Below are positions 9,694 through 46,773 of a stretch of 64,000 nt of DNA, piece by piece. Below the pieces are notes generated by a model, which saw only the letters and a program-made list of their open reading frames with translations, did no database searches and was not told where the DNA came from. Numbering within the stretch: the stretch's first letter is position 1; every line of letters begins with the position of its first letter. A program made the translations under genes and the position numbers. The stretch comes from Candidatus Onthousia faecavium (GTDB taxonomy: Bacteria > Bacillota_I > Bacilli_A > RF39 > UBA660), in NCBI GenBank assembly GCA_018711135.1, contig DVIS01000026.1, forward strand, positions 3,172 through 67,171, given 5' to 3'.

Positions 9694-10125
9694 ATGAATA
9701 AAGAATTTAACTATAATTATAATTACTATCCTAAATATATGGATAGAGATATGAATGATCCTAAGTTTTTTACTGAAAGTGAAGGCTATTTAAGAGGAAA
9801 TATGTTTAGAAATTTATATAGCCAGTATAAGAATTATCAACCACAAGTTTTAAGACCAACTAATGAACAGGAAGAGATGTTTCTAAGAATGTCAGAAGCA
9901 GAGTTTGCTGCTCATGACCTTAATTTATATTTAGATTTATATCCTAATGATGGCAATGCTTTAGATCTATTTAATAAATATCGAAGAGAAGCGAATAGAT
10001 TGATGATGGAATATGAAGAAAAGTATGGACCAATCCTAACTAGTAGTGATAGTTTAAATACTAGTCCATTCTTATGGCAGACATTGATATTTCCTTGGAA
10101 TATGGAGGGGTTAAGTAATGTTTAA
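9694..10125 (+). CDS. cotJB: spore coat protein CotJB with a CotJA-like N-terminal segment
   Basis: AAHDLNLYLDLYPNDGNALDLFNKYRREANRLMMEYEEKYGP matches the CotJB pattern (LYLDTHP..A...FN.Y). N-terminal EGYLRGNMFRNLYSQY resembles the CotJA GTLFPELY motif. Its stop overlaps the cotJC start. Confidence 0.8.
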   Translation: MNKEFNYNYNYYPKYMDRDMNDPKFFTESEGYLRGNMFRNLYSQYKNYQPQVLRPTNEQEEMFLRMSEAEFAAHDLNLYLDLYPNDGNALDLFNKYRREANRLMMEYEEKYGPILTSSDSLNTSPFLWQTLIFPWNMEGLSNV

Positions 10126-10258
10126 ATATGCTAAAAGATTACAGTATCCTATTAATATTAAGAAAAAAGATATTGGAATGGCTAAACAATTAATTACACA
10201 GTATGGAGGAACTTATAACAAAAGGGACATTAATTGTAATATACCTCTAAAGTATTAG
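10118..10258 (+). pseudogene. cotJC: cotJC 5' segment (codons 1-31 authentic, then read-through into prophage DNA)
   Basis: MFKYAKRLQYPINIKKKDIGMAKQLITQYGG parallels the CotJC/Mn-catalase N-terminus (..KLQYP......LA..L..QYGG). Similarity ends at 10210 and a stop follows at 10256-10258. Confidence 0.85.
10202..10209. repeat. attL core (TATGGAGG)
   Basis: Identical 8-mer at 46291-46298. It encodes Y-G-G of cotJC in the same reading frame at both ends. Confidence 0.85.
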
Positions 10259-11669
10259 TGTTAGAGTCGAATTCTATCTTATTAATTAGTATATGAACTA
10301 TTTCATTTTTTTCTTTTAAAGATATATTTTCGTTATTTAGTATCTCATAAACTTTTTTGCCATTTTCTATAATTTCATGTTTTCTTGTTTCTGCTTTAGG
10401 TTTTTCAGTATTATTAAGTTCTTTTGTTAATCTTTCTTTTTCTTTTGCTAATATATCTTTATTTTCTTTATACTCTTCAAGAGTATCTATTCCATCACGA
10501 TAAGCTTCTTTTATTCTTTTTTCTTTGTCCTTAATCTGTTCTAATTGATGTTTAATAATAGAATATTTATCTGTTTCTTTCTTTTCTTTTTTATTTGGCA
10601 CTATGTGATTAATAGTTCCATTGTTAATGGTATCTTTTATAGTATTTATTACTAATTGATATATTTCTTCAATCGAAAGAGTAGAAGAGTTAGAACATTT
10701 ACCTTTGTTATATCCATTACAACGTAATTTTGTCTTGTTACAAGTTACCATAGTACATCCACACTCTTTACATCTTATTAATCCTTTAGTCCAATGTTTA
10801 GGGTTACTATCAATATGCTGCTTAGGTTTCTTCCATTTATTATTTTTTGTTAGTTTTGTTTGCGTCATATCCCATAGTTCATTTGAAATAATAGGAGTGT
10901 GTTTCCCATTTGTTATAATTGTATTAGGATCATCAAAATTATAAGCGTCTCTTCTCCCTGGTGTATATCTTAATTTTCCTATGTAAACAGGGTTATTAAG
11001 TATATAATATATTGTTCTATTTTCAAATTTATTTCCTCTTTTTGTCTTAATTCCCAATTTGTTAATATTCCTAGCAATTTCCATCATAGGTAGATTGTCT
11101 ATAGCATATTGCTCAAAAATTAGTTTAACAATTTCTGTTTCTTCACTATTAATAACAAGTTTGTTGTCTTCTACATTATATCCAAAAGAAGGATTAGTTT
11201 GTAATTCACCTTCTGAATGTTTTTCAAGTTGTCCTTTTTTTACCTCACTAGATAAGTTTAAAGAATAGTATTCTGCAAATGCTTCAAAAAATGCTTCTAA
11301 AATTACACTGATTTTATCATCTGGATCTAATGGCTCAGATATTGAAATAACATTAATACCATATTCTTTTTTTAATAACGATTTATATACTACAGAATCT
11401 TCTCTATTTCTAGAAAATCTATCAAATTTATGAACTAATATTACATCAAACTTTTTTGCTTTCGCTTGTTTTATCATTTCCATAAATGCAGGCCTTGTTT
11501 TAGCTTTTCTTCCAGATATACCCTCATCAGTAAAAATGTATTGAGGATCTATAAAAATATCATGCTCAGATGCATACTTTTTAATTGCTTTTAATTGTGC
11601 AGATAGAGAATAACCTTCACGAGCTTGTTCATCAGTTGACACTCTTCTGTAAACTGCGCCTATTTTCAT
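10230..11669 (-). CDS. large serine recombinase (phage integrase/excisionase catalytic subunit)
   Basis: 479 aa. N-terminal resolvase domain AVYRRVSTDEQAREGYSLSAQ with DRFSRN, a recombinase domain, the Cys cluster CKECGCTM...CNGYNKGKC and a C-terminal coiled coil; adjacent to attL. Confidence 0.93.
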   Translation of the reverse strand: MKIGAVYRRVSTDEQAREGYSLSAQLKAIKKYASEHDIFIDPQYIFTDEGISGRKAKTRPAFMEMIKQAKAKKFDVILVHKFDRFSRNREDSVVYKSLLKKEYGINVISISEPLDPDDKISVILEAFFEAFAEYYSLNLSSEVKKGQLEKHSEGELQTNPSFGYNVEDNKLVINSEETEIVKLIFEQYAIDNLPMMEIARNINKLGIKTKRGNKFENRTIYYILNNPVYIGKLRYTPGRRDAYNFDDPNTIITNGKHTPIISNELWDMTQTKLTKNNKWKKPKQHIDSNPKHWTKGLIRCKECGCTMVTCNKTKLRCNGYNKGKCSNSSTLSIEEIYQLVINTIKDTINNGTINHIVPNKKEKKETDKYSIIKHQLEQIKDKEKRIKEAYRDGIDTLEEYKENKDILAKEKERLTKELNNTEKPKAETRKHEIIENGKKVYEILNNENISLKEKNEIVHILINKIEFDSNTNTLEVYYN

Positions 11670-11770
11670 TGTAACACTTCCTTTTATTAATATTTTATGT
11701 TACAATAATATAGAAAAACTCCTATATCATTGTATATAGTTTTAGTTGGTAGCTAAGTAGTTTTTCATTT

Positions 11771-11800
11771 GATCTCGTGTTCCAGCACGAGGTCTTTTTT
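11771..11800 (+). terminator. + strand intrinsic terminator facing the host cotJ side
   Basis: 9-bp stem 11771-11779/11786-11794 with one U.G pair that is valid only in + sense, followed by TTTTTT 11795-11800. In - sense there is an A.C mismatch and no U-tract. Confidence 0.55.
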
Positions 11801-12137
11801 ATTTTTCATTTTTATCTATCAGTAAATTAAGTCTATAATTAATAGAACCTAATCCAAATAGTGGAATGCTAGCAAATGCACCACTTGTTAATGAAATAAT
11901 TAATAAATTAATATTAAATACCTCTTCTGTAGTGTCTAAAATAGAATCTCCATTAACTCTTTCAATTTTATATACATTTCCTAGTATAATACCTGAAAAT
12001 AATCCTAAAAGAATAACGCCAATAGCTGCGTACATATATATTTTAGGTGTTCTTTTTCTTCTACAATTAGGACATAAACTTGACAAGCCATTATTTTCAA
12101 ACTTAGTTTTACATTTGTCACACTCTATTTTTGCCAC
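11799..12137 (-). CDS. zinc-ribbon membrane protein (lysogeny-module accessory gene)
   Basis: 112 aa; CDKC...CPNC ribbon followed by two hydrophobic helices. Confidence 0.6.
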   Translation of the reverse strand: MAKIECDKCKTKFENNGLSSLCPNCRRKRTPKIYMYAAIGVILLGLFSGIILGNVYKIERVNGDSILDTTEEVFNINLLIISLTSGAFASIPLFGLGSINYRLNLLIDKNEK

Positions 12138-12201
12138 AATAACATCTCCTTTACTACAATATTATTTATTAAAAGTATCTATACTAGCATACTCTTAAGT
12201 T

Positions 12202-13188
12202 TTAATTTATTTCTATGCTATTAATAATTTCATTAATACTTTGATTAATATTATCTTGTTCACTTTTATTAATACCAATAGTGAAATTATATATGTTATC
12301 ATCATTAAAATTATATAATAAGTATGTATTTATATAATATTCCGAATTATTTATAGTAGAGTAATAAGATACTTTTTTGCATGAAATATTTGCAATATTA
12401 ATATCTTCTATATTTATCAATGTAAAGTCTTGACTTGAACTTTTTATTCCTTCTATAACGTCATTGTACACCTTTTCTGTTTCTATAACTGAAACTCCAG
12501 CAACTTTGGCATTAGCTTTATAATAACTAACATATAATAATTCGTTAGTTTCATAAATATTTGGGTAATGATAATTTCCATTTTCTGCTTCTTGTTGAAA
12601 CCAATTAGAGGGTACTTGGTATTTTATATTTTCTACAGTATATGTAGTCCACTTTTCTTTTTCATCTATGGTATTATCTTTATAATCTAATAAATCATCA
12701 ACATCCATAATTTTAACTTCATTGTTTTTGTCATAATAATTAATTGAGCTAATAACTTGATTATCTGATAAATTAATATCTTCGAGCCATTTTTTATAAG
12801 CTGAATATTGAATTTGTTCATCTTTATCATTATCTTCTATATTTAAAATATCTGCATGAGAATCATTATATGAAGAATTTTGGAAAGTGTATGAGGTTCC
12901 AACGAAATCATTTATTATTTTTTGTATTCTAATATCATCTTCCCTGTCAGTTATAGTAATGTATGTAGTACTAAGTAAATTAGAATACATTGTCTTATCA
13001 TATTTATATCCTAATTTTTCTAAGTATTCTATTATTTCTTTGTCTGTAAAATTTGAAGTATTTACTTTATTATTGGTGCTGCTATATAGCATAATACTAG
13101 TAGTAATTAGAGATGCTAATAGAATCATGCTCATAATAACAACTATAATAAATGTCTTCTTATTAATAACAATATTATTTTTTTTCAT
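12202..13188 (-). CDS. membrane-anchored extracytoplasmic protein (candidate superinfection-exclusion or surface protein)
   Basis: 328 aa; single N-terminal TM FIIVVIMSMILLASLITTSIMLY, N/D/Y-rich remainder, between the repressor and the recombinase. Confidence 0.6.
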   Translation of the reverse strand: MKKNNIVINKKTFIIVVIMSMILLASLITTSIMLYSSTNNKVNTSNFTDKEIIEYLEKLGYKYDKTMYSNLLSTTYITITDREDDIRIQKIINDFVGTSYTFQNSSYNDSHADILNIEDNDKDEQIQYSAYKKWLEDINLSDNQVISSINYYDKNNEVKIMDVDDLLDYKDNTIDEKEKWTTYTVENIKYQVPSNWFQQEAENGNYHYPNIYETNELLYVSYYKANAKVAGVSVIETEKVYNDVIEGIKSSSQDFTLINIEDINIANISCKKVSYYSTINNSEYYINTYLLYNFNDDNIYNFTIGINKSEQDNINQSINEIINSIEIN

Positions 13189-13196
13189 ATTTTCTC

Positions 13197-13850
13197 CTAA
13201 TCAATTTTAGTCCTTTTTTCACGAGCAATACCTACAATTTTTATAGGTAAATTAATAACATCTTCTTTAGAAAACATTCTTATATCATAAGCCATATTAT
13301 ATGCTTGTAATACTATACCTTGTTCATTAATCAACACTTTTTTAAAAGTCGATTCAGTACCATTTATCATGATAGCACAATCTTTGCCATTATAAAGTGC
13401 AGTATCATTAGTCTGTTCGAATATTACTATATCCTCGTCTTGATATTTAGGGAACATAGAATCACCACTTATTTTTAATCCATAAAATTTTTTTCCACCT
13501 TTGGTCCATTCTTTAGGAATATCAATATAATCAATTATATCGGGCTGGCTTTCAATTGGTATTCCAGCTTTTATTGAACCATAAACAGGTATTTTTACTA
13601 TGTTAGAGTTTATATCTATAACACTTGCATTATCGAATGAAAGAGGCGGAAAAAAATCATTAATGGATATATTAAAATAATCAGCTAGTTTAAATAAAAC
13701 AATATTATTTGACTCCAATTTTCCAGACTCGTATCTTGAAATGGTTTGTGATGTTGTTCCTAAATAATCAGCTAGTTCTTGTTGCGTTACATTCTTTCGT
13801 GTCCTATAATATTTAATTTTGTTACCAATATATTTTGAAATTTCCTCCAT
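13197..13850 (-). CDS. CI/LexA-like phage repressor (XRE HTH plus S24 peptidase domain)
   Basis: HTH RKNVTQQELADYLGTTSQTISRYESGK; C-terminal GDSMFPKYQDEDIVIFE and FKKV match the S24 Ser/Lys autocleavage fold. Confidence 0.9.
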   Translation of the reverse strand: MEEISKYIGNKIKYYRTRKNVTQQELADYLGTTSQTISRYESGKLESNNIVLFKLADYFNISINDFFPPLSFDNASVIDINSNIVKIPVYGSIKAGIPIESQPDIIDYIDIPKEWTKGGKKFYGLKISGDSMFPKYQDEDIVIFEQTNDTALYNGKDCAIMINGTESTFKKVLINEQGIVLQAYNMAYDIRMFSKEDVINLPIKIVGIAREKRTKID

Positions 13851-13885
13851 ATAATTTCTCCTTCTTTTTTATTATATCACGTATT

Positions 13886-13899
13886 TACGAAAATGGAAC
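13886..13899. promoter_or_regulatory. operator O1 (TACGAAAATGGAAC) overlapping the leftward repressor promoter
   Basis: One of three copies of TACGAAAATGGWAC. On the - strand an extended -10 TGATATAAT (plus-strand coordinates 13871-13879) lies downstream of it. Confidence 0.6.
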
Positions 13900-13927
13900 A
13901 AAAAGTTATATATTTTACAAAAAGGTA

Positions 13928-13956
13928 TTGACATTGTACGAAAATGGTACTAAACT
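13928..13956 (+). promoter_or_regulatory. rightward early promoter with embedded operator O2
   Basis: TTGACA 13928-13933, a 17-nt spacer containing TGTACGAAAATGGTAC (13935-13950), then TAAACT 13951-13956. Confidence 0.6.
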
Positions 13957-13990
13957 TAAACTATCATTAGAACAGAAAGGAGGTAATAAA

Positions 13991-14221
13991 ATGCAAACAA
14001 AGCTAATTTCTTTAATGAATGATCATAATTTAAAAAATAAAGATATAGCAAGGATATTGGCTATATCTGAAAAGCAAGTTGGTTTAAAAATTAGAGGGAA
14101 AGTGCCATTTAAAGATAGAGAAATGTTTTGTTTAAGCCATTTTTTTAATAAAACAGTAGATGATATTTTTTTAGATCCGATGTACGAAAATGGTACATTA
14201 TCAAATGAAAGAGAGAAATAG
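13991..14221 (+). CDS. Cro/antirepressor-like small HTH protein
   Basis: AAAGGAGG upstream of ATG 13991; NKDIARILAISEKQVGLKIRGK is HTH-like; divergent from the repressor. The track ORF start at 13835 is an upstream extension without an RBS. Confidence 0.7.
   Translation: MQTKLISLMNDHNLKNKDIARILAISEKQVGLKIRGKVPFKDREMFCLSHFFNKTVDDIFLDPMYENGTLSNEREK
14181..14197. promoter_or_regulatory. operator O3 (TGTACGAAAATGGTACA) inside the 3' end of the cro-like gene
   Basis: The 16-mer is identical to O2 and has palindromic ends TGTAC/GTACA. Confidence 0.5.
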
Positions 14222-14342
14222 ATATGGAAGAATTAAAAAAGTATTGATTAAAGATTTAACCGATAAGATAAAAATGCTAGATGGTAAAGATAAAGTTGAG
14301 CTATTAAAACTTATTCTTGAATATGAAAAAGAGAATAAATAG
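14205..14342 (+). CDS. hypothetical small protein (45 aa)
   Basis: ATG-initiated ORF MKERNRYGRIKKVLIKDL... ending just before the GGAGG of the next gene; below the track size cut-off. Confidence 0.3.
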   Translation: MKERNRYGRIKKVLIKDLTDKIKMLDGKDKVELLKLILEYEKENK

Positions 14343-14350
14343 GAGGTTAT

Positions 14351-14533
14351 ATGAGCATAGAAAGTGTGAAAGAAATAAAGGTAATTAAAACAACTGCTAT
14401 TATAGGCGAAGGGACAAAAGAAAATCCAGTAAGAGTAATAACTCAATACTGGGACTTAAAAGGAAAATTACTAGCTACTGTTGATGATTATGTATTAAGT
14501 AAGTCTTCAGCTTCATCAGATACAAGTTCATAA
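14351..14533 (+). CDS. hypothetical small phage protein
   Basis: AGGAGG 6 nt upstream; 60 aa. Confidence 0.5.
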   Translation: MSIESVKEIKVIKTTAIIGEGTKENPVRVITQYWDLKGKLLATVDDYVLSKSSASSDTSS

Positions 14534-15180
14534 GTTATATAACTCACAGTTGCTCTAATAAATCGTTTTAAATCATTTATATCTTTGTCATCAAACTTTT
14601 TAATATAATGTGTTTCATCATTTCCAAGCCATACAGAGACTTTAGCTAATGTTCGAATTTTTGATGTTTCATCTATATAAGTAATGATGACTTGACCTAA
14701 TAATGTAGATTTAATTTTTTCTTCATCATTAGGGTGCTTATAAATGCAAAAATCTTTAATCAGAAATTCAATGGCTTTCCGATAACCAATTCCAGATAGT
14801 TGATCTAATCCATATGTTTCTGATGCAACAGCTTGGTTATATATGTTACAAAATGTAGGAGATAAATTATGAATGCACTCTTCAAATATTGCTTCTTTAG
14901 GTTTAACTGGAAACGACTCCAATAATGTTAGAGAATAATAAGAGTGTTCTTTATAACTTTCAACTTTATATTTTTCATAATTATAATGAGTCAAAAAACT
15001 CTTACCACAAGCAGGACAAGTAAAGAGTATAGATACCAAATTAATATCTATGTTAGCTTTTTCAAATTCATTTATTGGGGAAATATTATTGTTGCATATA
15101 GGACATATTTTTGGACACTCACAAGCAATACGTAAATTAGAATTTCCTCTTAACATTAAATATTGTTTCAAATTTTTCAC
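14488..15180 (-). CDS. zinc-ribbon plus DUF4145-like domain protein, reverse-oriented moron
   Basis: 230 aa. N-terminal CECPKICPICNN...CPACGK; the C-terminal GIGYRKAIEFLIKDF...VWLGNDETHY...DLKRFI pattern matches my recollection of DUF4145. It is the only - strand gene inside the rightward early region. Confidence 0.65.
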   Translation of the reverse strand: MKNLKQYLMLRGNSNLRIACECPKICPICNNNISPINEFEKANIDINLVSILFTCPACGKSFLTHYNYEKYKVESYKEHSYYSLTLLESFPVKPKEAIFEECIHNLSPTFCNIYNQAVASETYGLDQLSGIGYRKAIEFLIKDFCIYKHPNDEEKIKSTLLGQVIITYIDETSKIRTLAKVSVWLGNDETHYIKKFDDKDINDLKRFIRATVSYITYELVSDEAEDLLNT

Positions 15181-15508
15181 CTCACTTTCAATTAATCTAT
15201 TGTAAATGAGGTAATATATAAAATCAATACTAAAGCTACCAACTAAAATATGATGAATAAAATAATATAGGAGGGGAACTTAATGAGTAAGTTAAAAATA
15301 AAAGTAATTAATCCGCCTCAAATAGAACATCAAAAAGAATTAATTAAGCTAGTTAAAGAACATATACAAGAAAATTATTATTAATTTAGAAAGGAAAGGA
15401 GATATGACACTAAATAAAAAAAGAAAGATTAAAGCTCCCCAGCCATTAATCTTCTGTTAAATGAATTAACATCTTTATTTTATCACAAAGTGTCATGAAT
15501 GTAAAATT

Positions 15509-15706
15509 ATGAAGAAGAGAATAGTTTTAAGAAATTGGGTAAGGGTTGCATTATTAGTAATATTAGTAATTATTACAGGAGCTATTATTGCTAAATTAGT
15601 GTGCAACTGTTCTAATAATTTTGACAAATATGCAGATATGTGTGATCAAGAAAAAGGTTCTATTTGTTCTTACTATGAGGTTAGAAATTATATGATAAAA
15701 AAATAA
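15509..15706 (+). CDS. small membrane protein
   Basis: 65 aa with one TM VALLVILVIITGAIIAKLV and a Cys-rich tail. Confidence 0.45.
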   Translation: MKKRIVLRNWVRVALLVILVIITGAIIAKLVCNCSNNFDKYADMCDQEKGSICSYYEVRNYMIKK

Positions 15707-15720
15707 ATTCAGGAGGGCTT

Positions 15721-16395
15721 ATGGTACAAAATAGTTTTGTTTTTTACGACAGTTTCAGGGATTCGGTTGAAGATATGGATGAAAAAGATAGATTAGCTTT
15801 CTATGAGGCAATTATTGATTATTCATTAGATGGCAAGATGCCTGATAGTTTATCTAAAGAATTAACAAGAATGTTTAAGTTGGTTAAACCTCAATTAGAT
15901 GCTAATACTAAGAGAAAAAAAGATGGAAAAAAAGGTGGTAGACCATCTAAAACCGATGAAGAAAGCCTATCTAATAACCATGAAGAAACTATAGTTTCAG
16001 AAAAAGAAAACTATGAAAAAACCACTGGTTTTGAAAATAAAAACCATAGGATAAAAAATAAAAAACCTAATGTAAATGTAAATGATAATGTAAATGTTAA
16101 TGTTAATGCTAATGTTAATGTATTAGAAATTGCTGAAAAAGAATTTGGAAGACCATTATCATCAGCAGAAATTGAATTTATTAATTCATGGGAATACAAT
16201 CCAGAAATTATAGAATTAGCTATTAAAGAAACAGTCCTGAATCAAGTATATAACGTCAAATATACTGATAAAATTCTTTATGAATGGGATAAGGCTAACC
16301 TTAGAGACATTAACTCAATTAAGAGATATTTGAAAAAGAGAAAAGAACAAAAGAATAATGATGAAGAGGAATATCATTACCGGAGGTTAGAATGA
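15721..16395 (+). CDS. phage replisome organiser (DnaD-like C-terminal domain)
   Basis: The C-terminus EFGRPLSSAEIEFINSW...YTDKILYEWDKANL resembles the DnaD domain; central NVNVNDNVNVNVNANVNV linker; precedes the helicase with an ATGA overlap. Confidence 0.7.
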   Translation: MVQNSFVFYDSFRDSVEDMDEKDRLAFYEAIIDYSLDGKMPDSLSKELTRMFKLVKPQLDANTKRKKDGKKGGRPSKTDEESLSNNHEETIVSEKENYEKTTGFENKNHRIKNKKPNVNVNDNVNVNVNANVNVLEIAEKEFGRPLSSAEIEFINSWEYNPEIIELAIKETVLNQVYNVKYTDKILYEWDKANLRDINSIKRYLKKRKEQKNNDEEEYHYRRLE

Positions 16396-17657
16396 CACTA
16401 GGGTTAGAAGAAGAATTAATAGGTTGTTTAATATTAAAACCAGAGAATATTGCTAAGCTAGTAATACCAGAAGAATGTTTCCAAAATAATGAGAACAAAT
16501 TTATTATCAAGTTACTAAAAATTCAGTATGACGATATTAGAAATGTAGATATTGTAGCAATACCAGAAAAATATAAACATCTATTTAATCAACGGTTTAA
16601 CCAAGATATTATAATAAAAAAAATAGTAACTATAATGACTAACTCTCTTGGACATAATTTTGATTACTATCAGGAATTGTTATTTGAAAGATATGTAAAT
16701 AGTTTAATTTTAGATGCAATAGATAAATTTAAAAATAATAATATTTCGCAAGAAGAGTTATTGCAGTACATCCACAAATATGAAGCTATGAACATTAAAA
16801 CTACTGCTAATAAATTAACGGGTGATGAGGTATTCAGGATAATTAATTCTAAGAACAAAAATATCAACTTTAGATTTGAAAAATTATCTAAATATGCAAA
16901 TATTCAAGAGCATGATCTTGTTGTGGTTGCAGCAAGACCAGGAATAGGTAAAACGGGTTTTATATTGAATTTACTTGAGGATTTATCTGATAGATACAAC
17001 TGTGTTTTGTTTAACATGGAAATGAGCGATAAACAAGTTTATCAACGTTTGGTTGCTATAAATACGAAAATACCAATAGGCTATTTTGATAAGCCTGCTA
17101 CTGATTACCAGAAAAAATTATTGGAAGATGGCAGTAAGAAAATTGCTAATAAAAATATTAAAGTTATTAGTAGAAGCCAAACCATTAGCACAATTAGAAA
17201 GCGAATAATAGAAGAAAGCAAACAAACTCATACTTTAGCATTTATAGACTATGTAGGTTTAATCGGTAGCAGTGAAAAGAATAAATCACTGTATGAGAAG
17301 ACAACAGCTATTGTTAAAGAATTAAGACAGATATCCTTAGACTATGACTGCACAATCTTCTTGGTAGCTCAAATAAATAGAAATTCTGAAAATACAAAAG
17401 ATAAAAGACCAAAGATAAGCGATCTTAAAGAAACTGGTGAACTTGAACAGTCTGCTACAACAGTACTAATGCTTCATAATGAAAATTATTACAAAGGCTT
17501 AGAAATGAAAATAGAAGAAATAGAGGTAATAATTGGAAAAAATAGAAATGGGCAGACAGGTATTTTAACTCTTGAATATAATCAAAAGAATCAAAGATTT
17601 GATCCTAAAGGTACTAATGAAAACTATAGTGAACCTAATAATTGGAGAAAGGAATAA
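16392..17657 (+). CDS. DnaB-family replicative helicase
   Basis: Walker A AARPGIGKTGFILNL, FNMEMS, IDYVGLI, FLVAQINR and KNRNGQTG are RecA-like DnaB C-terminal motifs. Confidence 0.9.
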   Translation: MTLGLEEELIGCLILKPENIAKLVIPEECFQNNENKFIIKLLKIQYDDIRNVDIVAIPEKYKHLFNQRFNQDIIIKKIVTIMTNSLGHNFDYYQELLFERYVNSLILDAIDKFKNNNISQEELLQYIHKYEAMNIKTTANKLTGDEVFRIINSKNKNINFRFEKLSKYANIQEHDLVVVAARPGIGKTGFILNLLEDLSDRYNCVLFNMEMSDKQVYQRLVAINTKIPIGYFDKPATDYQKKLLEDGSKKIANKNIKVISRSQTISTIRKRIIEESKQTHTLAFIDYVGLIGSSEKNKSLYEKTTAIVKELRQISLDYDCTIFLVAQINRNSENTKDKRPKISDLKETGELEQSATTVLMLHNENYYKGLEMKIEEIEVIIGKNRNGQTGILTLEYNQKNQRFDPKGTNENYSEPNNWRKE

Positions 17658-17659
17658 AA

Positions 17660-17926
17660 ATGGAGGAAGAATTAAAAGAATTAGAAAGACGGGTTAGTAG
17701 GTTAGAAAAAATAACGGGAAATACATATGATATTTATCTCTGTAATGACTCTTTAAAAATACCAATAGAATTATTTAAAATTTTATTTCCTAGCAATTCT
17801 TATTCAGTGGAAAATGTTGAGTTGCATAAAGAAATAGACAAATTAAGAAATGAGAAAAAGCAATTAGAGAGTTTAGTAACAAACTTGTTGCTTAAATCGG
17901 CTGAAGAGAAAGTAGAGGTTATATGA
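17660..17926 (+). CDS. hypothetical coiled-coil protein
   Basis: ATG 17660 after the helicase stop; 88 aa. Confidence 0.5.
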   Translation: MEEELKELERRVSRLEKITGNTYDIYLCNDSLKIPIELFKILFPSNSYSVENVELHKEIDKLRNEKKQLESLVTNLLLKSAEEKVEVI

Positions 17927-18683: not shown

Positions 18684-18819
18684 TAATAATTTATTAAAAA
18701 GTAAGAAAGAAACACCATAAGTTCTGTTGTTACCTTTCGTCTCCTTAAAATCTTTACGTTGTGCAGGCGAGTTTGACTTACTGAGTTTGGCCTTGCATAT
18801 TTTGAAAGGGGTTAGTAAT

Positions 18820-19650: not shown

Positions 19651-19664
19651 AAGGAGGAATAGAA

Positions 19665-19979: not shown

Positions 19980-19980
19980 T

Positions 19981-20359: not shown

Positions 20360-20375
20360 AATAAGGAGGTTAGAA

Positions 20376-36145: not shown

Positions 36146-36155
36146 GAGGGTAATA

Positions 36156-39593: not shown

Positions 39594-39603
39594 AGGTGAT
39601 CGT

Positions 39604-40470
39604 ATGATGAATAAAGTGAGAGAATTCAATCTTGTTAATGAAAAAGGTCAGATTTTTTCATTAATGGATATCGAAAATTATACGTTGTTAACAGATCCTG
39701 ATGGACTTGGCTATTCTTATTCTAATTCTTATACAAAAGTTGGAGATGTCTTTGTAAATAATTTGAGTGAACAAGAGCAGACTCAAATTACTGGAATATG
39801 TAATTTTTTATTTTATGAAAATTATACTAATTTAGTTAATTTTATAGAAAATTCTCAACAACTAAAGTTAAATTATAAAATTCCACTTAGAAATGGTTCA
39901 CAGAATGAATATTTTAAGAATGTTAAAATTCAATCTCTTGGAAAAACCGAAAAAGATACAAATGGAATACTTAGTTGTCCTATAATATTAGATATGACCT
40001 CTCTCTGGTATGAACAAAAAGAATATACTTATGATATGTCAGCTGGTTCAAATGAGGTTAGATGGAATTTTAAATGGGGTGCTAGATTTGCAAATTATAA
40101 TTCTAGAAAATTAGAGTTTAACAATACTGGTCATACTTTAGCACCAATTTATTTAGAAATAGACGGGGCAGTTAAAAATCCAGAGATAATTGTTACTGAT
40201 TCTAACAATAATATTCTATTTAACCTGTTGATTGAAATAGAAATAGACCAATATGAAAAGTTTATATATAGTTCTATAGATGGCGATATTAAAATAATGA
40301 AGCAGAATGTTGATGGAACTTATGAAAGTTTATTTAAACAAGCTTATATAAATATTGAAAATAATAATATCTATAAGCTTCCTTTAGGTACATCAAATAT
40401 TACAATACAAGCTGATAATGAAATCACATCTGCAAGACTTAATATATATCCATATTATAGATCTATTTAG
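39604..40470 (+). CDS. distal tail protein (Dit)
   Basis: ATG 39604 after GAGGTG; 288 aa immediately after the tape measure gene. Confidence 0.7.
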   Translation: MMNKVREFNLVNEKGQIFSLMDIENYTLLTDPDGLGYSYSNSYTKVGDVFVNNLSEQEQTQITGICNFLFYENYTNLVNFIENSQQLKLNYKIPLRNGSQNEYFKNVKIQSLGKTEKDTNGILSCPIILDMTSLWYEQKEYTYDMSAGSNEVRWNFKWGARFANYNSRKLEFNNTGHTLAPIYLEIDGAVKNPEIIVTDSNNNILFNLLIEIEIDQYEKFIYSSIDGDIKIMKQNVDGTYESLFKQAYINIENNNIYKLPLGTSNITIQADNEITSARLNIYPYYRSI

Positions 40471-40478
40471 GAGAAAAC

Positions 40479-41735
40479 ATGGAAGATACTGTAAAAATAA
40501 TATTAGATGATCAAGAGTATGTTCTGATATATAATGAACAAACTGAATTATATGAATTATCTTTGACGGCACCTACAGTTACAGGTTTACATGTTATAGA
40601 TGTTATATATAGTTCAGGTGATGAGACAGCTATAGATGATGTTGATTTAGTTGTCTTAAAAAAAGAGGAACCAGTGTATTTATATGAAGAAACTATCGCT
40701 TATTTTTTAGATAAAAAAACATTTGAAATTTTAGATGCTGTTCAACTTAATATTCAGGAGATTAATCGTGACCTTGAAACAAATGGTAATTCAATTTTTA
40801 TTAGTTTTAAAGAACTTTCTATAGAAGAAGGCGATTTTATCTATTTAAAGAAAAACGATAAAATGTCTTTTCTTGGAATTGTTCAAAACCAGGAGCAAAC
40901 ACAGAATAGTAATTCATATACAATTACATGTAAAGATGTTCTTTCCTTATTTGATGTAGATATGTTTGTTGAAAATGAAGATGTTATTTCTAGTATAGGA
41001 ATTGAGGATTTTATAAAAGAAACTATAGAAAATGAGTTTATTAATAATACTGATACGTTTGTTAATAGAAGCTTTTTTTCGGTAGAAGCTTTAACTCATA
41101 CTAAAAAAAATATAAGTGTTGGCAGTATTGTAACTGTATCAAATAACATTTATAACTTATTAACTTTCATAAACAATGCAATCCAAAAATATGACTTGGA
41201 TTTTGATTTTATATTAAATGGTAGTACATTGAAATTACAAATATCTACTAGGACAGAAGACAAAATGCTAATTGATACAACAACAAGTGATATAACAAAC
41301 TATAGTGAGGTATTCTCTTTATCATATACTGCCAAGGTTGAGGTGTATATAAATGCTACTAAATCAAAATATTATAGATATCTTTTGAATGACAGAACTA
41401 CTACGACAGATAAAACAAATCCAAATCGTGTTTATGGGAAGACAGAAAAGATAACTGTTGAGGATGCTGCTGATGCAGAACAAGCTTCTTTAGATGTTTT
41501 TAAGGGTAATTCTTATAAGCATAATATTACTTTTGAGATTTTAAAAACATCTAAATTATATGATATTTCAAAAATAAAATTAGGTACACCTGTTTTAATA
41601 AAAACAAAGAATAATATAGTCCAAAATACTTATATATCTAAAATAGTTGATGCTAATCAAAACTATTTAACGATTAGTTGTGGGAATATAAGAGTTGACT
41701 ATATTGATAAATTTTTACAGGAAAGGAGAAATTAA
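40479..41735 (+). CDS. tail-associated/baseplate hub protein (Tal-like)
   Basis: 418 aa following Dit. Confidence 0.6.
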   Translation: MEDTVKIILDDQEYVLIYNEQTELYELSLTAPTVTGLHVIDVIYSSGDETAIDDVDLVVLKKEEPVYLYEETIAYFLDKKTFEILDAVQLNIQEINRDLETNGNSIFISFKELSIEEGDFIYLKKNDKMSFLGIVQNQEQTQNSNSYTITCKDVLSLFDVDMFVENEDVISSIGIEDFIKETIENEFINNTDTFVNRSFFSVEALTHTKKNISVGSIVTVSNNIYNLLTFINNAIQKYDLDFDFILNGSTLKLQISTRTEDKMLIDTTTSDITNYSEVFSLSYTAKVEVYINATKSKYYRYLLNDRTTTTDKTNPNRVYGKTEKITVEDAADAEQASLDVFKGNSYKHNITFEILKTSKLYDISKIKLGTPVLIKTKNNIVQNTYISKIVDANQNYLTISCGNIRVDYIDKFLQERRN

Positions 41736-41736
41736 A

Positions 41737-42384
41737 ATGTTAAAAGGACACTCATATAATGATCAGATATACTATTCAGTTGCTGATAGACTTATTAATA
41801 ATACTTTTCTTAATGGTACAAATGGAATCTTTCAAAATGAAGGTTCTGGTTGTTCACTATCAAACACTAGCAATTCCGTTACAATAAGTGACGGTTTTTT
41901 TATTGTTCAAGGAGGATTAACAGAAATTGTTAATTCAGAAACATTACAAGTTGTCTTAGATGGCTCATATTGCGTTTTAGTATATGAATTAGATATGTCT
42001 AAAGATAATACAGACACTAGCTTTGTTCAAGGCCAATTTAAAGTATTAACTGGTCAAAGTTCTTATCCTGCTTTAACTAAGCAAAAATTAACAGAAAATA
42101 CAGGAATTTATCAGTATGAATTTGCTAGATTTAGAGCTTTAACTACTGGTATAACAGACTTTGTAGATAATAGAACTTTCTTAGATTATAATTCGATTTT
42201 TGAATATATACAAAGCCAAATAGAGTTGATAGAAGATAATGGTTTATATGTTCCAAAAACTGAATTTGATCCAGTAAAGGAAAAAGTAGCAGAATTAGAT
42301 AGCAATCCTAAATTAGTAGTATCAGACACTCAACCTACACCAATATCAAATAAGACGATAGTCTGGATAAAGCCAAAGGAGTAA
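41737..42384 (+). CDS. baseplate/tail fibre-associated protein
   Basis: ATG 41737 after AAGGAG; 215 aa. Confidence 0.5.
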   Translation: MLKGHSYNDQIYYSVADRLINNTFLNGTNGIFQNEGSGCSLSNTSNSVTISDGFFIVQGGLTEIVNSETLQVVLDGSYCVLVYELDMSKDNTDTSFVQGQFKVLTGQSSYPALTKQKLTENTGIYQYEFARFRALTTGITDFVDNRTFLDYNSIFEYIQSQIELIEDNGLYVPKTEFDPVKEKVAELDSNPKLVVSDTQPTPISNKTIVWIKPKE

Positions 42385-42390
42385 TGATAT

Positions 42391-43134
42391 ATGAATGAGT
42401 TTGCAAGAGTCGGATTTAATTATGGCTCTTTTTATTATGCATATATTTTAAAATGGCAATTGTTAAACCAGGATAAAATAAATAACAGATCTACTATTAG
42501 AGTACAAGCTAGTATTTATGTTGACGCCAATAATATTAGTTGGTCAAGAGGTTCTGCTTCACTTTATAACACGTCGTTTGGCTTAGCAAATACTTATTAT
42601 AGAGGGGAAACAGTTGTTAATACTCAAGACATCACAGTTAATCATGATTCAAATGGTAATGCTTCTATTTATATAGGTGGTTCTATTAATACCACTTTTG
42701 TTATGAGTGGTAATTGTGGTGGAACAATAAATTTACCTCAAATTGATAGAAATGCACCATCTATTAGCTTGTCTATAAAAAACATTGAAGAAGAAACCGC
42801 TACTTTTAACTATTCAACTAATAGTACTCTTGATAGTCTTCAAGGAAGATTAAATGGTGGTAATTGGCAAAATATATCAATGTCTAATCCAATTACTCTA
42901 TCTGGCTTAGCAGATGATACCAATTATACGTACCAAATTAGAGGAAAGAAAACAAGTAATCAAATGTGGGGTAGTAGTAATACTATTTCTTTTAAAACTA
43001 TTGCTGGTACTTTTGCTATGGTTTCTATCAATGGAGCAGATTTTAAAGATGCAGAGGTCTATATAGTGACTGAAAGTGTAGTAGAAAAAATTTCTAAGGA
43101 TCAATATGAAATTATAGAAGGTGATGATAATTGA
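42391..43134 (+). CDS. tail protein with C-terminal FN3-like module
   Basis: 247 aa. PSISLSIKNIEEETATFNYS...DTNYTYQIRGKK looks like a fibronectin type III repeat. Confidence 0.55.
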   Translation: MNEFARVGFNYGSFYYAYILKWQLLNQDKINNRSTIRVQASIYVDANNISWSRGSASLYNTSFGLANTYYRGETVVNTQDITVNHDSNGNASIYIGGSINTTFVMSGNCGGTINLPQIDRNAPSISLSIKNIEEETATFNYSTNSTLDSLQGRLNGGNWQNISMSNPITLSGLADDTNYTYQIRGKKTSNQMWGSSNTISFKTIAGTFAMVSINGADFKDAEVYIVTESVVEKISKDQYEIIEGDDN

Positions 43135-43307
43135 TAAGAATAGATGAGGTAAGATTAAGTCCACAAAAAGTTTATCAGTCTGAAAGTTTTACAATTCAGG
43201 TAAAGGTTTCTAAAGATGAAAAAGCATTAAATAAATTGCCTTTTAAATTATCTAGTAAATTGGGAGGAGGAATAAAAAATGGAGGGGCAACAAAATCTAA
43301 AAACTGA
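43131..43307 (+). CDS. hypothetical small tail-module protein (58 aa, TTG start)
   Basis: ORF LIRIDEVRLSPQKVYQSESFTIQVKV... fills the gap between track ORFs; start codon uncertain. Confidence 0.3.
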   Translation: MIRIDEVRLSPQKVYQSESFTIQVKVSKDEKALNKLPFKLSSKLGGGIKNGGATKSKN

Positions 43308-43998
43308 TTATCAAGACTATACCTATGTTGGTAATAAAAAATTTAACTTAATTAATAATTCTGACGGTACTATTTCACTTGAAGATGTAACAGACTATGA
43401 AATTGAGGGTGACGATTTTGGAGCGAATGATATTAATGCTACTAATCAAAGAATTAATGAAATGTATAATTTTATTTATCCAGTAGGAGCAATAATAATA
43501 TCTTCTAATTCTAACTTTAATCCAAATACTGTTTATGGAGGAACCTGGGAGTTAATTGACAAAGAATTTGTATCTGCGGCTAGCAGCAATTTAAGTTTTA
43601 ATGCCTTTACACCTAATTCTGATTTTATAACTCAATCAGATGACAATTTAAGTTGTTACGTGTCAAAAAACGGACACTGCATGAACATAGAATTTTCATT
43701 TAAAACAAATAAAGCAGTAACTGATAGCGGAGGAGTTCTAGGTACATTTAATTTTGATAATCTGGGCATTTCAAGATTTACAAATAGTATGCGTTTCGTA
43801 GGATGTTCTGATGGGTCTAATGTCGATATAATGTTTTATATAAATGCTTCAACTGGAGAATTACAAATTTTAGATATTGTAGGTGCAGATGAGCTTAAGG
43901 CTGGCGATACAGCTTATTTTTATTTAACAGTTTCTGTTAATGAAACACAAATGTTAGATTCTGCTTGTGATAAATTCTTTTGGAGAAGAACAGCTTAA
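43279..43998 (+). CDS. putative receptor-binding/tail fibre protein
   Basis: 239 aa. IYPVGAIIISSNSNFNPNTVYGGTWELIDKEF resembles a motif recurrent in Gram-positive phage fibre tips. Confidence 0.55.
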   Translation: MEGQQNLKTDYQDYTYVGNKKFNLINNSDGTISLEDVTDYEIEGDDFGANDINATNQRINEMYNFIYPVGAIIISSNSNFNPNTVYGGTWELIDKEFVSAASSNLSFNAFTPNSDFITQSDDNLSCYVSKNGHCMNIEFSFKTNKAVTDSGGVLGTFNFDNLGISRFTNSMRFVGCSDGSNVDIMFYINASTGELQILDIVGADELKAGDTAYFYLTVSVNETQMLDSACDKFFWRRTA

Positions 43999-43999
43999 C

Positions 44000-44611
44000 A
44001 TGATAAATGAGATAATAGAAACTGCTAAAGAGTTTGGAATATTTATAGCAGAGATAGTAGTAGCGCTATATGCGTGTAAAAAGTATCTAAACCAATATTT
44101 TAAAAAAACAAATGTAGGTAAGATGTTGACTAGGCAGAATAAGTTAGATTTAGAAATACTTAATAAATTGGAATATGTAAAAGAGATTCTAAATGCTGAT
44201 AGAATTCACGTTTACGAATTTCATAATGGGGAACATTATTCTGATTATAGGTCGGCATATAAATTCTCTTGCACGTACGAGGTTTTTAAAGCAGGTAATC
44301 AGCCAGTACAACAGCGATGTATTAATTTACCAACGAACTGTATGCCACAATTTATACACAGAATTACAGAAGATGGCAAGTTTGTTTGTGAAGACTTGGA
44401 AGAACTAAAAACATCTATGCCTAGTACTTATAATTTTAAAAAGAGTATAGATGTAGCTTCTTTCTACGATATAGCAATACATAACAGAGAGGGTAATATC
44501 ATTGGTTTTATTGCTATTCATTGGTTTAACAAAGAAAACATGAAAGTAGATAAAGATGCAATTAATCAACTCGTTTGGTACGTTGAAGAGCATCTTATTA
44601 ATTCAAAGTAA
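44000..44611 (+). CDS. membrane-anchored protein with possible GAF-like sensor fold
   Basis: ATG 44000; N-terminal TM FGIFIAEIVVALYAC. The C-terminal 160 aa (ADRIHVYEFHNG...NREGNIIGFIAIHW) is weakly GAF-like. Sits just upstream of the holin. Confidence 0.5.
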   Translation: MINEIIETAKEFGIFIAEIVVALYACKKYLNQYFKKTNVGKMLTRQNKLDLEILNKLEYVKEILNADRIHVYEFHNGEHYSDYRSAYKFSCTYEVFKAGNQPVQQRCINLPTNCMPQFIHRITEDGKFVCEDLEELKTSMPSTYNFKKSIDVASFYDIAIHNREGNIIGFIAIHWFNKENMKVDKDAINQLVWYVEEHLINSK

Positions 44612-44629: not shown

Positions 44630-44878
44630 ATGGAAATAACTTATGTAGTAATTATAGCAATAGTTGCTTACATTTTAGGAGCTATTACAAAAATATTTAT
44701 TGATAGTGTACCTAACAAGTATATTCCAATTCAGAATGTAATTGTAGGTATTATCAGCGCATTAATTTGCTATTTTACTGGTGTTGAGCCTAATTTACTA
44801 CAGGCATTAGTATTGTGCCTTGTTGCGACTATGGGTGCTGGTGGTTTGGCAGATTTAATTAATATTAAAAATAAATAA
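44630..44878 (+). CDS. holin
   Basis: 82 aa, two or three TM helices, charged C-terminus; upstream of the endolysin. Confidence 0.7.
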   Translation: MEITYVVIIAIVAYILGAITKIFIDSVPNKYIPIQNVIVGIISALICYFTGVEPNLLQALVLCLVATMGAGGLADLINIKNK

Positions 44879-44910
44879 GATATTAAAATAGTTATAAAGG
44901 AGATGTTAAA

Positions 44911-45183
44911 ATGGTCAATAATGAAATGTTAGATTTATGCAAAGAAACAGTAGTTAATTACTTTAATGAAAATGTTGATAAAACTGATGGATTAAAAATA
45001 AACAAAGATAATGTCTTTATTGTATGGTTTAGTAAAACATTACAAAACTTTAAAGCACTAGTAAGCACTACCGTTTCAGATGGTATGTACTATGAACTTA
45101 CCTATAATGGGGATAAGAAAGAGCTTTATTTAGATGCTTACAAAAAGTGGGAAAATAAATGTATTAAAGTGGAGGAGAAATAA
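44911..45183 (+). CDS. hypothetical protein in the lysis cassette
   Basis: 90 aa. Confidence 0.5.
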   Translation: MVNNEMLDLCKETVVNYFNENVDKTDGLKINKDNVFIVWFSKTLQNFKALVSTTVSDGMYYELTYNGDKKELYLDAYKKWENKCIKVEEK

Positions 45184-45186
45184 TAT

Positions 45187-45288
45187 ATGGCAACAATAAA
45201 AGAAGATAAAACTCTTCCAAAAGAAGAAGCTAGTCTAGAAAAAGTAGAAAACGGAATAACAGAAGATGGAAAAGGAAGGGATGAGTAA
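45187..45288 (+). CDS. hypothetical small acidic protein (33 aa)
   Basis: ATG 45187; TAATG overlap with the endolysin start. Confidence 0.3.
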   Translation: MATIKEDKTLPKEEASLEKVENGITEDGKGRDE

Positions 45289-46184
45289 TGAAAATAATCG
45301 AAATGTTGGCTCCACTTGGTTACAGTTGTAGACCAGGTATATCAAGAACTGGTTTCAAAGGTATAACTATCCATAACACATCAAACAATAATAAAGGTGC
45401 TAATGCAATAGCTCACGCCAACCTTTTAAGAGGTTCTTGGAAGAATGTAACTACATCATGGAATTACGTTGTAGATCAAGATAGAGCGGTTAGGTGTGTT
45501 CCAGAAAATGAGGTAGCTTGGTGCCAAGGTGATGGTAGAGGCGATGGAAATATGAAAACTATCTCTATTGAAATATGCGATAATTCTGATGGAGATATTA
45601 AGAAAGCTACTGATAATGCAGTAGAACTATCTGCAGAGATATTAAAAAGATATGGTGTTACAAATGCCAGTAGTTACTTATTTCAGCACAACCATTGGAC
45701 TGGGAAAGACTGTCCTTACGATATAAGACGTGGTAATCCTTATGATTGGGATACTTTTGTTTCTAAAGTTCAAGAAAAATTAAACGGTAGTGGTTCTAGT
45801 TCTACAACTCCAGCAGACCAAGTATTAAAAGTTGGTTCAAAGGTAAAGTTTAATGGTGTATTTAAAGTAAATGAAATAATATTGCCTAATAGCAAATATC
45901 CTAATGGTGCTATCGGATGCTATGATACTTGCTATGGTTCTCCATGTGGAATAAATGATTACATTCCTAGTGGTCCACTTGCTAAATGTAATTCTGATGG
46001 AAGCAGTGCTAATTACAATGCAATTTTAAATGTTGGTGACTACTGGAAATGTGACAATACTTTTACTGTAATAGGTGTTGAACTCCCAACCACTTATTTA
46101 AAAAATGGTGTAGCAATTCTAGAAGCTGATGGAGTTCAGTTTAGATGTGATTGTGGGCCTTTATACGAAGTAGCTAATAATTAA
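45288..46184 (+). CDS. endolysin: N-acetylmuramoyl-L-alanine amidase (Amidase_2/PGRP) plus C-terminal wall-binding region
   Basis: ITIHNTSN...AHANLL...SWNYVVD...EVAWCQGDG...ISIEICDN...HNHWTGKDCP are Amidase_2 zinc-site and fold motifs. A GSGSSS linker precedes a roughly 110-aa C-terminal domain. Confidence 0.88.
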   Translation: MKIIEMLAPLGYSCRPGISRTGFKGITIHNTSNNNKGANAIAHANLLRGSWKNVTTSWNYVVDQDRAVRCVPENEVAWCQGDGRGDGNMKTISIEICDNSDGDIKKATDNAVELSAEILKRYGVTNASSYLFQHNHWTGKDCPYDIRRGNPYDWDTFVSKVQEKLNGSGSSSTTPADQVLKVGSKVKFNGVFKVNEIILPNSKYPNGAIGCYDTCYGSPCGINDYIPSGPLAKCNSDGSSANYNAILNVGDYWKCDNTFTVIGVELPTTYLKNGVAILEADGVQFRCDCGPLYEVANN

Positions 46185-46189
46185 TAAAA

Positions 46190-46225
46190 GGTAGAGTCTT
46201 AATTTTGGCTCTACCTATTTTTTTA
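46190..46225 (+). terminator. intrinsic terminator after the endolysin gene
   Basis: GGTAGAG 46190-96 pairs with CTCTACC 46209-15, followed by TATTTTTTT. Confidence 0.75.
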
Positions 46226-46290
46226 TAATAGTTTTTTCAGTAAATTTAGTATCTTTAAGTTCTTAGTTTATATAAGTGTCCCTTTTGTAA

Positions 46291-46298
46291 TATGGAGG
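46291..46298. repeat. attR core (TATGGAGG)
   Basis: Direct repeat of 10202-10209. It is preceded by an in-frame TAA (46288-46290) and followed by the colinear CotJC sequence. Confidence 0.85.
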
Positions 46299-46773
46299 TA
46301 GTAATGGAGAATTAGCAGCAGCACTAAGATATTTAAATCAAAGATATACAATGCCTGATCAAAAAGGTCAAGCCTTGTTAACTGATATTGGGACTGAAGA
46401 ATTAGCTCATGTAGAAATGATTTCTACAATGGTGTATCAATTATTAAAAGGTGCAACGGTTGAAGAATTAAAAGCTGCTGGTCTTGCTTCTCATTATGCA
46501 GAACATAAAAAAGCTTTATATCCAACTGATGCTAACGGTGTTCCTTTTACAGTTACTTATTTTGCTACGACTGGAGATCCTTTAGCAGACATTATGGAAG
46601 ATATGGCCGCAGAACAAAAGGCAAGAGCTGTTTATGAGAACTTAATAGAGCTTACTGATGATCCTGATGTTATTGGACCACTTTTATGGTTAAGACAAAG
46701 AGAAATAGTTCATTATAATGCTTTTGAAGACTTATTCAATTATTATGATAAAATGTTAAATAATAAAAGCTAA
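46291..46773 (+). CDS. cotJC: cotJC 3' segment (manganese-catalase-family spore coat protein, residues about 29-188)
   Basis: In frame from the att core: YGGSNGELAAALRYLNQRYTMPDQKGQALLTDIGTEELAHVEMI...EDMAAEQKARAVYE...LRQREIVH is colinear with CotJC. The track ORF 46351..46773 is its Met-initiated part. Confidence 0.9.
   Translation, partial: YGGSNGELAAALRYLNQRYTMPDQKGQALLTDIGTEELAHVEMISTMVYQLLKGATVEELKAAGLASHYAEHKKALYPTDANGVPFTVTYFATTGDPLADIMEDMAAEQKARAVYENLIELTDDPDVIGPLLWLRQREIVHYNAFEDLFNYYDKMLNNKS

Follow-up and report, generated by a model that had tools for sequence, protein, structure and literature searches.

The spore-coat gene cotJC is split by 36.1 kb of phage DNA in a 64,000-nucleotide stretch of contig DVIS01000026.1 (the window), and joining the two gene pieces in silico at the phage attachment sites gives one uninterrupted reading frame. 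By architecture, the element is an SPbeta-like gene-intervening prophage: it lies inside the coding sequence of a sporulation gene, carries its own recombinase beside an attachment site, and is bounded by direct and inverted repeats. We give about an even chance, by analogy with SPbeta, that this prophage in its conserved cotJC attachment site (attB) behaves in two ways, with induction by the SOS response and excision in the sporulating mother cell.

The cotJ operon begins upstream with cotJB (9694-10125, + strand; Pfam CotJB 1.5e-19). The cotJC ATG at 10118 overlaps the cotJB stop, and the last 8 nt of cotJB are inside the cotJC reading frame. No cotJA-like open reading frame of ≥ 30 aa occurs between the ABC permease gene and cotJB (9224-9693). 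The 5′ fragment of cotJC (codons 1-31; 10118-10209, + strand) runs on into phage DNA, so that the frame translates as MFKYAKRLQYPINIKKKDIGMAKQLITQYGG, the CotJC part, then the phage-derived TYNKRDINCNIPLKY, and stops at 10256-10258 to give a 46-aa product. The 3′ fragment (codons 32-188 plus stop; 46299-46773, + strand) resumes beyond an in-frame TAA at 46288-46290 and reads YGGSNGELAAALRYLNQRYTMPDQKG... (also read as YGG-SNGELAAALRYLNQRYTMPDQKG...) to a stop at 46771-46773. It contains all of the metal-ligand helices and has no start codon or ribosome-binding site; its first ATG comes only at codon 48. The cut lies immediately ahead of E35, the first predicted metal ligand, which leaves the 5′ product with no ligands. 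Integration splits cotJC into two pieces, neither of which can yield active protein. The initial, sequence-only reading of this DNA had placed the overlapping start, the cut after codon 31, the stop at 10258, the TAA and the resumption at 46299 at these positions, and all of the coordinates hold. Its joined product (10118-10209 plus 46299-46773; 567 nt, 188 uninterrupted codons) was reproduced exactly.

The rebuilt protein looks like CotJC from end to end. Pfam Mn_catalase matches residues 1-175 (3e-57), and alignment to the solved Mn catalases 6j42 and 1jku covers residues 1-178 and is unbroken over the junction, with the motif Q-[FY]-G-G-x-x-G-E-L-[AS]-A-A-L spanning the join. The Mn_catalase fold over the whole length, the size (class of ~ 189 aa) and the gene position directly after cotJB all match CotJC, and the profile comparison suggested with the initial reading therefore came out in its favor. 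The NCBIfam equivalog for Mn catalase (NF052557) gives 113.6 bits, below its cutoff of 350; the match covers model positions 1-186 of 268, which is the pattern that a member of the short CotJC subgroup should give. We do not call the rebuilt protein a bona fide catalase. A spore-coat location is known only for B. subtilis CotJC.

Both junctions have the form expected of serine integrase attachment sites. An 8-mer, TATGGAGG, is present at each (10202-10209 and 46291-46298), as was noted from the sequence at the outset. Alone it is weak evidence: its resemblance to a ribosome-binding site accounts for 7 occurrences in the window compared to 1.3 expected. More specific are perfect 12-bp inverted arms, TGTCCCTTTTGT, of which the window has just two copies, one at 10218-10229 (- strand) and one at 46277-46288 (+ strand), each beside a junction copy of the 8-mer. 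By alignment to intact attB, attL (10182-10229) comprises the host B arm, the core TATGGAGG (10202-10209) and the phage P′ arm AACTTATAACAAAAGGGACA (10210-10229), and attR (46277-46320) comprises the phage P arm TGTCCCTTTTGTAA (46277-46290), the core TATGGAGG (46291-46298) and the host B′ arm. The same attR junction is seen in three other loci (L065, L070 and L078). The predicted attP, TGTCCCTTTTGTAA-TATGGAGG-AACTTATAACAAAAGGGACA, is a 42-bp quasi-palindrome that is symmetrical about the GG at the end of the 8-mer. This short imperfect palindrome with a central dinucleotide has the same layout as the observed attP of a relative; the predicted sequence itself has no exact match in IMG/VR. The attB lies in the Q-Y-G-G codons, with crossover at the GG that ends TATGGNGG. 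The attB region, CA(A/G)TATGGNGGN..AATGGNGA, is nearly invariant across 72 intact orthologues because it encodes QYGGxNGE. A third copy of TATGGAGG, at 10101-10108, is the cotJC ribosome-binding site and precedes the attL core by 94 nt; as the sequence around it does not resemble the att arms, it is probably coincidental.

Intact alleles of the gene are widespread. The rebuilt CotJC was searched against one genome per species (549 relatives), and the best 80 were examined. Under a strict open reading frame filter, cotJC is uninterrupted in 72 of these 80 loci, which answers the question, raised with the initial reading, of whether related genomes have an unsplit gene. The top 23 are 91-96% identical to the rebuilt protein over residues 1-183 or more. 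Over residues 1-187, uninterrupted orthologues from > 20 species-level genomes are 94-96% identical to it. Almost all of the 80 are metagenome-assembled genomes (MAGs) of uncultured gut ‘Bacilli’ or ‘Tenericutes’, and they include Candidatus Onthousia species, ‘Mycoplasma sp. CAG:877’ and a closed 1.5-Mb MAG. The host is one of the uncultured, small-genome gut Bacilli related to Ca. Onthousia and ‘Mycoplasma sp. CAG:877’, probably in the order RF39. GTDB genus CAG-877 is placed in family CAG-611 of that order (PMC8035907), and RF39 is predicted from gene content to include spore formers (PMC10868615). A host gene adjoining mraY (745-1830, + strand) passes the NCBIfam spoVE cutoff (455.8 vs 448.8 bits), and this predicted assignment supports sporulation capacity in a lineage labelled ‘Tenericutes’ or ‘Mycoplasma’.

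The recombinase gene (int; 10230-11669, - strand) encodes a 479-aa large serine recombinase with Resolvase (PF00239, 1.5e-29), Recombinase (PF07508, 4.2e-22) and Zn_ribbon_recom (PF13408, 2.8e-07) domains and a YRRVSTDEQ motif at residues 7-15. Its stop codon abuts the P′ arm of attL. The nearest integrase of a deposited phage, that of bajarodcaudo virus 3, is 40% identical, and all other deposited ones are < 30% identical; no cotJC-like attP was seen downstream of the bajarodcaudo virus 3 gene. Deposited phages have no DNA match to window positions 10100-22000 by megablast, and a peptide-seeded search of IMG/VR returned no integrase relatives. Public metagenomes contain > 100 clusters of related integrase proteins (64-96% identity, ~ 481 aa). 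We inspected the genomic contexts of seven clusters (P numbers below), L078 and the window, or nine integrases in total (eight relatives at 64-97% identity). All nine adjoin a cotJB/cotJC fragment or carry a matching attP, and they do so in at least five host backgrounds. Cluster P0001 (96% identical to the window integrase) has the same attL in the same host type (L081). P0043 (77%) adjoins cotJB in a second host, with folD and VWA flanks, and was recovered from 57 blocks of the assembly collection on contigs of up to 1.19 Mb; P0082 (70%) adjoins cotJB in a third host. P0089 (68%) and P0119 (64%) are each followed by the cotJC 3′ fragment on the same strand. P0027 (75%) and P0018 (77%) occur on contigs with an intact attP after int, in the case of P0018 followed by convergent lysin and holin genes.

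Two comparisons show that the site is left as well as entered. The attP observed for P0027 and P0018 is TGTCCCTTTTGTGA-TATGGTGG-AGGATATTGTTAAAGGGACA (for P0018 on contigs L097-L099), and the identical P0018 integrase is also joined to the 3′ part of cotJC in L100 (...TGTGATATGGTGG|ATCAAACGGAGAAATGGCC...). For this one integrase, both an attP and an attR thus exist in nature as a pair. Over 3970 nt, the host flank of a P0043 lysogen (L082) shares 95.6% identity with ‘Mycoplasma sp. CAG:877’ HF992498 (L060), in which cotJC is intact, and L082 diverges directly after TATGGTGG. The empty site of L060 and the occupied site of L082 are both states of the site within one species. Furthermore, three species representatives (L065, L070 and L078) match the rebuilt protein only over residues 29-187, and all are split at the same base, with the junction ...TGTC(C/T)CTTTTGTAA-TATGG(A/T)GG followed by the cotJC 3′ part. 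Given this repeated use of one site, the attP/attR pair and the empty and occupied sites, the relationship between phage and attB is a reversible, site-specific one that was kept while the integrase diverged to 64% identity.

The same comparisons bear on whether the split could be an artefact, either of chimeric assembly or of attributing the integration to the wrong enzyme. The window probably derives from a metagenome assembly, and the phage does encode an Xer-like tyrosine recombinase mid-way through its replication region (18727-19650, + strand; PHROG integrase 3e-36, NCBIfam XerA/XerD-like but below cutoff). However, the same attL recurs in an independent assembly (L081, from Logan SRR28284263), where the host is related and the integrase 96% identical, and attR recurs in three GTDB genomes. 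The att sites also have the short, quasi-palindromic form typical of serine integrases. We consider an artefact of either kind extremely improbable. The Xer-like protein was rejected as the integrase, as only the serine recombinase accompanies the cotJC site across otherwise different phages. The gene for the Xer-like protein is present in L081 too, and dimer resolution is one possible role.

The insertions do not all point the same way. The int gene adjoins the cotJC 5′ fragment in the window, L081, L082 and L090, and the cotJC 3′ fragment, on the same strand, in L078, L088, L093 and L100. Pairs with opposite orientations are closely related: the window and L078 integrases are 96.7% identical, and those of P0043 and P0018 are 90% identical. 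We compared attL and attR of the window with L078 (5860-6030), L093 (5430-5560), L088 (5440-5480) and L097 (4440-4500). The outer attP arms are the same inverted repeat (TGTCCCTTT...AAAGGGACA), and only the inner ~ 24 nt, with the asymmetric core, run the other way relative to int. L078 and L093 have a remnant arm beside int and a second, functional arm ~ 90 bp further on. The orientation flip would be accounted for if the attP core had inverted between the inverted arms that flank it. Read-through from the host cotJ operon via attL, antisense to int as far as a terminator at 11771-11794, was considered as a general control on excision and rejected because relatives are inserted in the opposite orientation.

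Upstream of int is a conserved non-coding leader of ~ 130 nt (11670-11800, - strand) that travels with int, whereas the neighboring gene varies from phage to phage. It is found in the window, L081, L082, L088, L090, L093, L094, L097, L078, L100, L139 and L163-L167, and also lies ahead of cassettes of an HNH gene plus the large serine recombinase in L097, L078, L100 and contigs from IMG/VR and metagenomes. On the int-sense strand there is a 12-14 bp hairpin with the loop GAGUUUUU, the 3′ arm of which also pairs with the start-codon region to make a second, mutually exclusive helix. Both helices covary, keeping their pairing via different sequences in different phages. Among well-paired sequences, nearly all of the non-Watson-Crick positions are G-U wobbles in the int sense, which on the other strand would be A-C mismatches. 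Folding z-scores are ~ -4.6. No Rfam family reaches its gathering threshold anywhere in the window, and the leader has only chance-level matches (E above 1). The 16-mer ATAGGAGTTTTTCTAT alone is present in 61 IMG/VR contigs, about the number expected by chance on a rough estimate; of these, only L139 also has the longer leader motif. The leader may be a bistable gate on integrase translation. A scan of 9200-16000 for sigma70 promoters and terminators found no promoter enrichment and a single terminator-like site, at 11771-11794 (+ strand), facing int; its stem has wobbles on the + strand that would be mismatches on the - strand. Its role could be to terminate an antisense RNA, or to block host cotJ transcripts entering via attL. 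An HNH endonuclease gene (NUMOD4/HNH_3) occurs between the leader and int, overlapping the int start, in L097 (2570-3004), L078 (~ 4019-4453), L163 (6437-6880) and L100 (137-571), and looks like a mobile homing-type insertion.

Based on gene content, the insert is a complete siphovirus-type prophage, temperate and functional-looking. The phage-specific DNA spans 10210-46290, for a genome of 36,089 bp with one copy of the core counted. Modules for lysogeny, replication, packaging, head, tail and lysis were all found, with intact long reading frames, in line with the initial description of a complete-looking phage with a terminal large serine recombinase. Beyond the leader are two lysogeny-region genes (11799-13188, - strand), for a 112-aa zinc-ribbon/membrane protein and a 328-aa protein, neither with a Pfam or PHROG family. 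Next is a CI/LexA-like repressor (13197-13850, - strand) with HTH_3 and Peptidase_S24 domains and a GDSM motif, which looks SOS-cleavable. The early region (13991-17657, + strand) has a cro-like helix-turn-helix gene, small reading frames, a DnaD-like loader (15721-16395) and a DnaB helicase (16392-17657), and within it a 230-aa gene on the - strand (14488-15180) matches PHROG 1305, ‘DNA binding protein’ (9e-42). Early and middle genes (17642-27223, + strand) include SpoVG-like, Xer-like, AbrB-like and sigma region-4-like genes. Packaging and morphogenesis genes (27771-44611, + strand) encode HNH, TerS, TerL, portal, protease, major capsid, adaptor/neck, tail terminator, major tail, tape measure (1145 aa; 36156-39593, + strand) and tail/baseplate proteins. 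The lysis module (44630-46184, + strand) consists of a holin (44630-44878), an open reading frame (44911-45183) and an Amidase_2 endolysin (45288-46184).

A few of these genes invite comment in their own right. The SpoVG-like gene (18435-18683, + strand; NCBIfam 3.9e-25, below cutoff), an AbrB/SpoVT-domain gene (20352-20609, + strand) and a small sigma-70 region-4-like gene (26780-27223, + strand) might simply serve the phage as regulators, or might disturb the control of sporulation in the host. The 328-aa protein (12202-13188, - strand) has an N-terminal membrane anchor and no family match, and its gene is oriented like that of the repressor. It and the 230-aa gene at 14488-15180 are candidate lysogenic-conversion or defence genes.

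This gene content also speaks to the idea that the element is a domesticated, defective skin-like one that makes no virions and is kept only as a developmental switch. The skin, vfbin and vrin elements are in that state. In contrast, every module here has intact long reading frames, from TerS/TerL to the endolysin and including the repressor and replication genes, and related phages are found as attP-form contigs of ~ 37 kb. We regard domestication as very improbable.

How might a complete phage live in this gene? In the dual behavior proposed above, the phage's own large serine recombinase inserted the prophage into the cotJC attB, and the reverse reaction, attL x attR, would restore the 188-codon gene and the 42-bp attP. 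Phages with related integrases do occupy, and in nature do leave, exactly this site. Excision would presumably need a phage recombination directionality factor (RDF, the excision cofactor). Upon DNA damage, self-cleavage of the LexA-like repressor would lead to excision and lytic growth, whereas during sporulation the mother cell, at the end of its differentiation, would excise the prophage and so regain cotJC for assembling the coat, with the prophage retained in the forespore. The sporulation arm of this explanation is by analogy only with published elements that split mother-cell sporulation genes: skin, SPbeta, vfbin, vrin and gin are excised during sporulation, and yin in a growth-phase-dependent manner (PMC4191935, PMC5595907, PMC5025042, PMC10747680).

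The sequence-only reading had gone further and proposed a sporulation-regulated intervening element. The structural part of that proposal stands, given the split gene, the prophage, the large serine recombinase, the join that restores the reading frame, the uninterrupted orthologues, the empty and occupied sites and the attP-form contigs of a related phage. For the part that called for mother-cell-specific excision, the sequence offers no direct support: no sigmaE/sigmaK-type promoter is prominent, no RDF was found and the repressor looks SOS-cleavable. For this prophage, restoration of the frame by precise excision is an in silico result; empty sites and attP forms are seen for its relatives.

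Several observations weigh against tying excision to sporulation, to which nothing in the sequence appears to link it. Matches to sigmaE/sigmaK consensus sequences are not enriched in the prophage (4 vs 4.6, 1 vs 0.7 and 3 vs 4.9 expected), and int is not preceded by any of them. The region upstream of host cotJ is also without a match, so the B. subtilis-type consensus may not apply to this lineage. No RDF or excisionase was recognized by PHROGs, and the neighbors of int differ from one family member to another. The orientation flips between close relatives mean that host cotJ transcription cannot be a general trigger. To our knowledge, sporulation of the host lineage has never been observed. 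Furthermore, B. subtilis and C. difficile reportedly form spores without their cotJC-like genes (PMC11222575, PMC12122855), so permanent disruption may cost little.

Much of this would equally suit an ordinary lysogen in which cotJC is inactivated, spores form without CotJC, excision occurs only on SOS induction, and the Q-Y-G-G-x-N-G-E site is simply a conserved, vegetatively silent and dispensable landing pad. The near-invariance of attB in the 72 intact orthologues would alone explain the choice of target and the broad host range. The LexA-like repressor fits such a lifestyle, as do the lack of a sporulation-type promoter signal or RDF in our scans of the prophage, the unconstrained orientation of insertion and the reported non-essentiality of cotJC-like genes for spore formation. 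The prophage is also polymorphic within a species, as would be expected for a recent, active phage. On the other side, the experimentally examined elements with this architecture excise in sporulation (with growth-phase dependence for yin), and the gene itself is strongly conserved. All split copies of cotJC retain open frames, and the ratio of nonsynonymous to synonymous substitution rates (dN/dS) relative to the nearest intact orthologues is 0.02-0.07. Such strong purifying selection in the clade indicates that loss should carry a cost, and a phage inherited through the spore would share any cost of a defective coat. The split copies themselves show no sign of decay, which does not discriminate between use after reconstitution and recent insertion; recent insertion of an active phage explains the lack of decay equally well. 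We think an ordinary lysogen a serious possibility, although one that falls short of an even chance.

If we return to the dual SOS and mother-cell behavior and extend it from this prophage to its relatives, a large family of gut phages would use cotJC as a reversible developmental switch in RF39-type Bacilli, with the bistable leader gating the integrase and the promoter of the transcript setting mobility. This broader scheme is speculative and we find it rather doubtful. Should excision be timed to sporulation, phage regulatory switches in sporulation genes would no longer be confined to cultured Bacillus and Clostridium but would reach gut commensals that are abundant and uncultured, and the class would take in a coat enzyme rather than a regulator. 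There is also indirect support for a working coat programme in RF39-type bacteria, because cotJC is under purifying selection and is targeted by phages that depend on spores. The junction sequences are simple and could be used to measure excision in gut metagenomes that are already available or in fractions enriched for spores. In addition, a new serine integrase family with precise attB and attP sites and natural variants of both polarities would be useful for genome engineering.

How does the cotJC prophage compare to known systems? Reversible excision that restores a host gene, with no requirement for phage production, is known for Listeria phage phi10403S in comK (active lysogeny). The restoration of the gene is the same there, but the host and target are different and there is no sporulation context. 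The closest counterpart in sporulation is SPbeta in B. subtilis spsM, with its SprA integrase and SprB RDF. Both systems have a complete prophage, a large serine recombinase beside an att site, a late mother-cell gene for the spore envelope and excision that rebuilds the reading frame (PMC4191935, PMC5499854). They differ in that the target here is cotJC, the host is uncultured and RF39-like, the integrase is diverged, and our scans recognized no RDF or sporulation promoter. The skin element in sigK of B. subtilis and C. difficile and PhiS63 in sigK of C. perfringens are likewise serine-recombinase elements inside a mother-cell gene, and PhiS63 is a functional phage (PMC3442830, PMC5025042). 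Because sigK encodes a regulator, splitting it gates a developmental programme, whereas CotJC is structural or enzymatic and at most coat composition would be affected. A serine recombinase also rejoins the gene that a mobile element has interrupted in the cases of vfbin (in spoVFB), vrin (in spoVR), gin (in gerE) and yin (in yabG) (PMC5595907, PMC10747680). Unlike the cotJC element, which appears to be a complete phage, these are defective or non-viral. In C. difficile R20291, the functional prophage phi027 has its attR directly upstream of cotG, which encodes a CotJC-like Mn catalase, and curing of phi027 changed sporulation initiation (PMC12122855, PMC11222575). However, phi027 is described as adjacent to cotG, whereas the cotJC phage is inside the gene. 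A passage in a preprint names cotJC among sporulation genes frequently used for integration, citing Abe et al. 2013 (Mol Microbiol 90:415), and the integration examples cited in that passage lie outside the B. subtilis clade (bioRxiv 10.1101/2021.11.22.469490). A cotJC-targeting element is therefore not new in principle. New relative to these systems are the host lineage, an uncharacterised integrase family with mapped att sites, and its wide spread.

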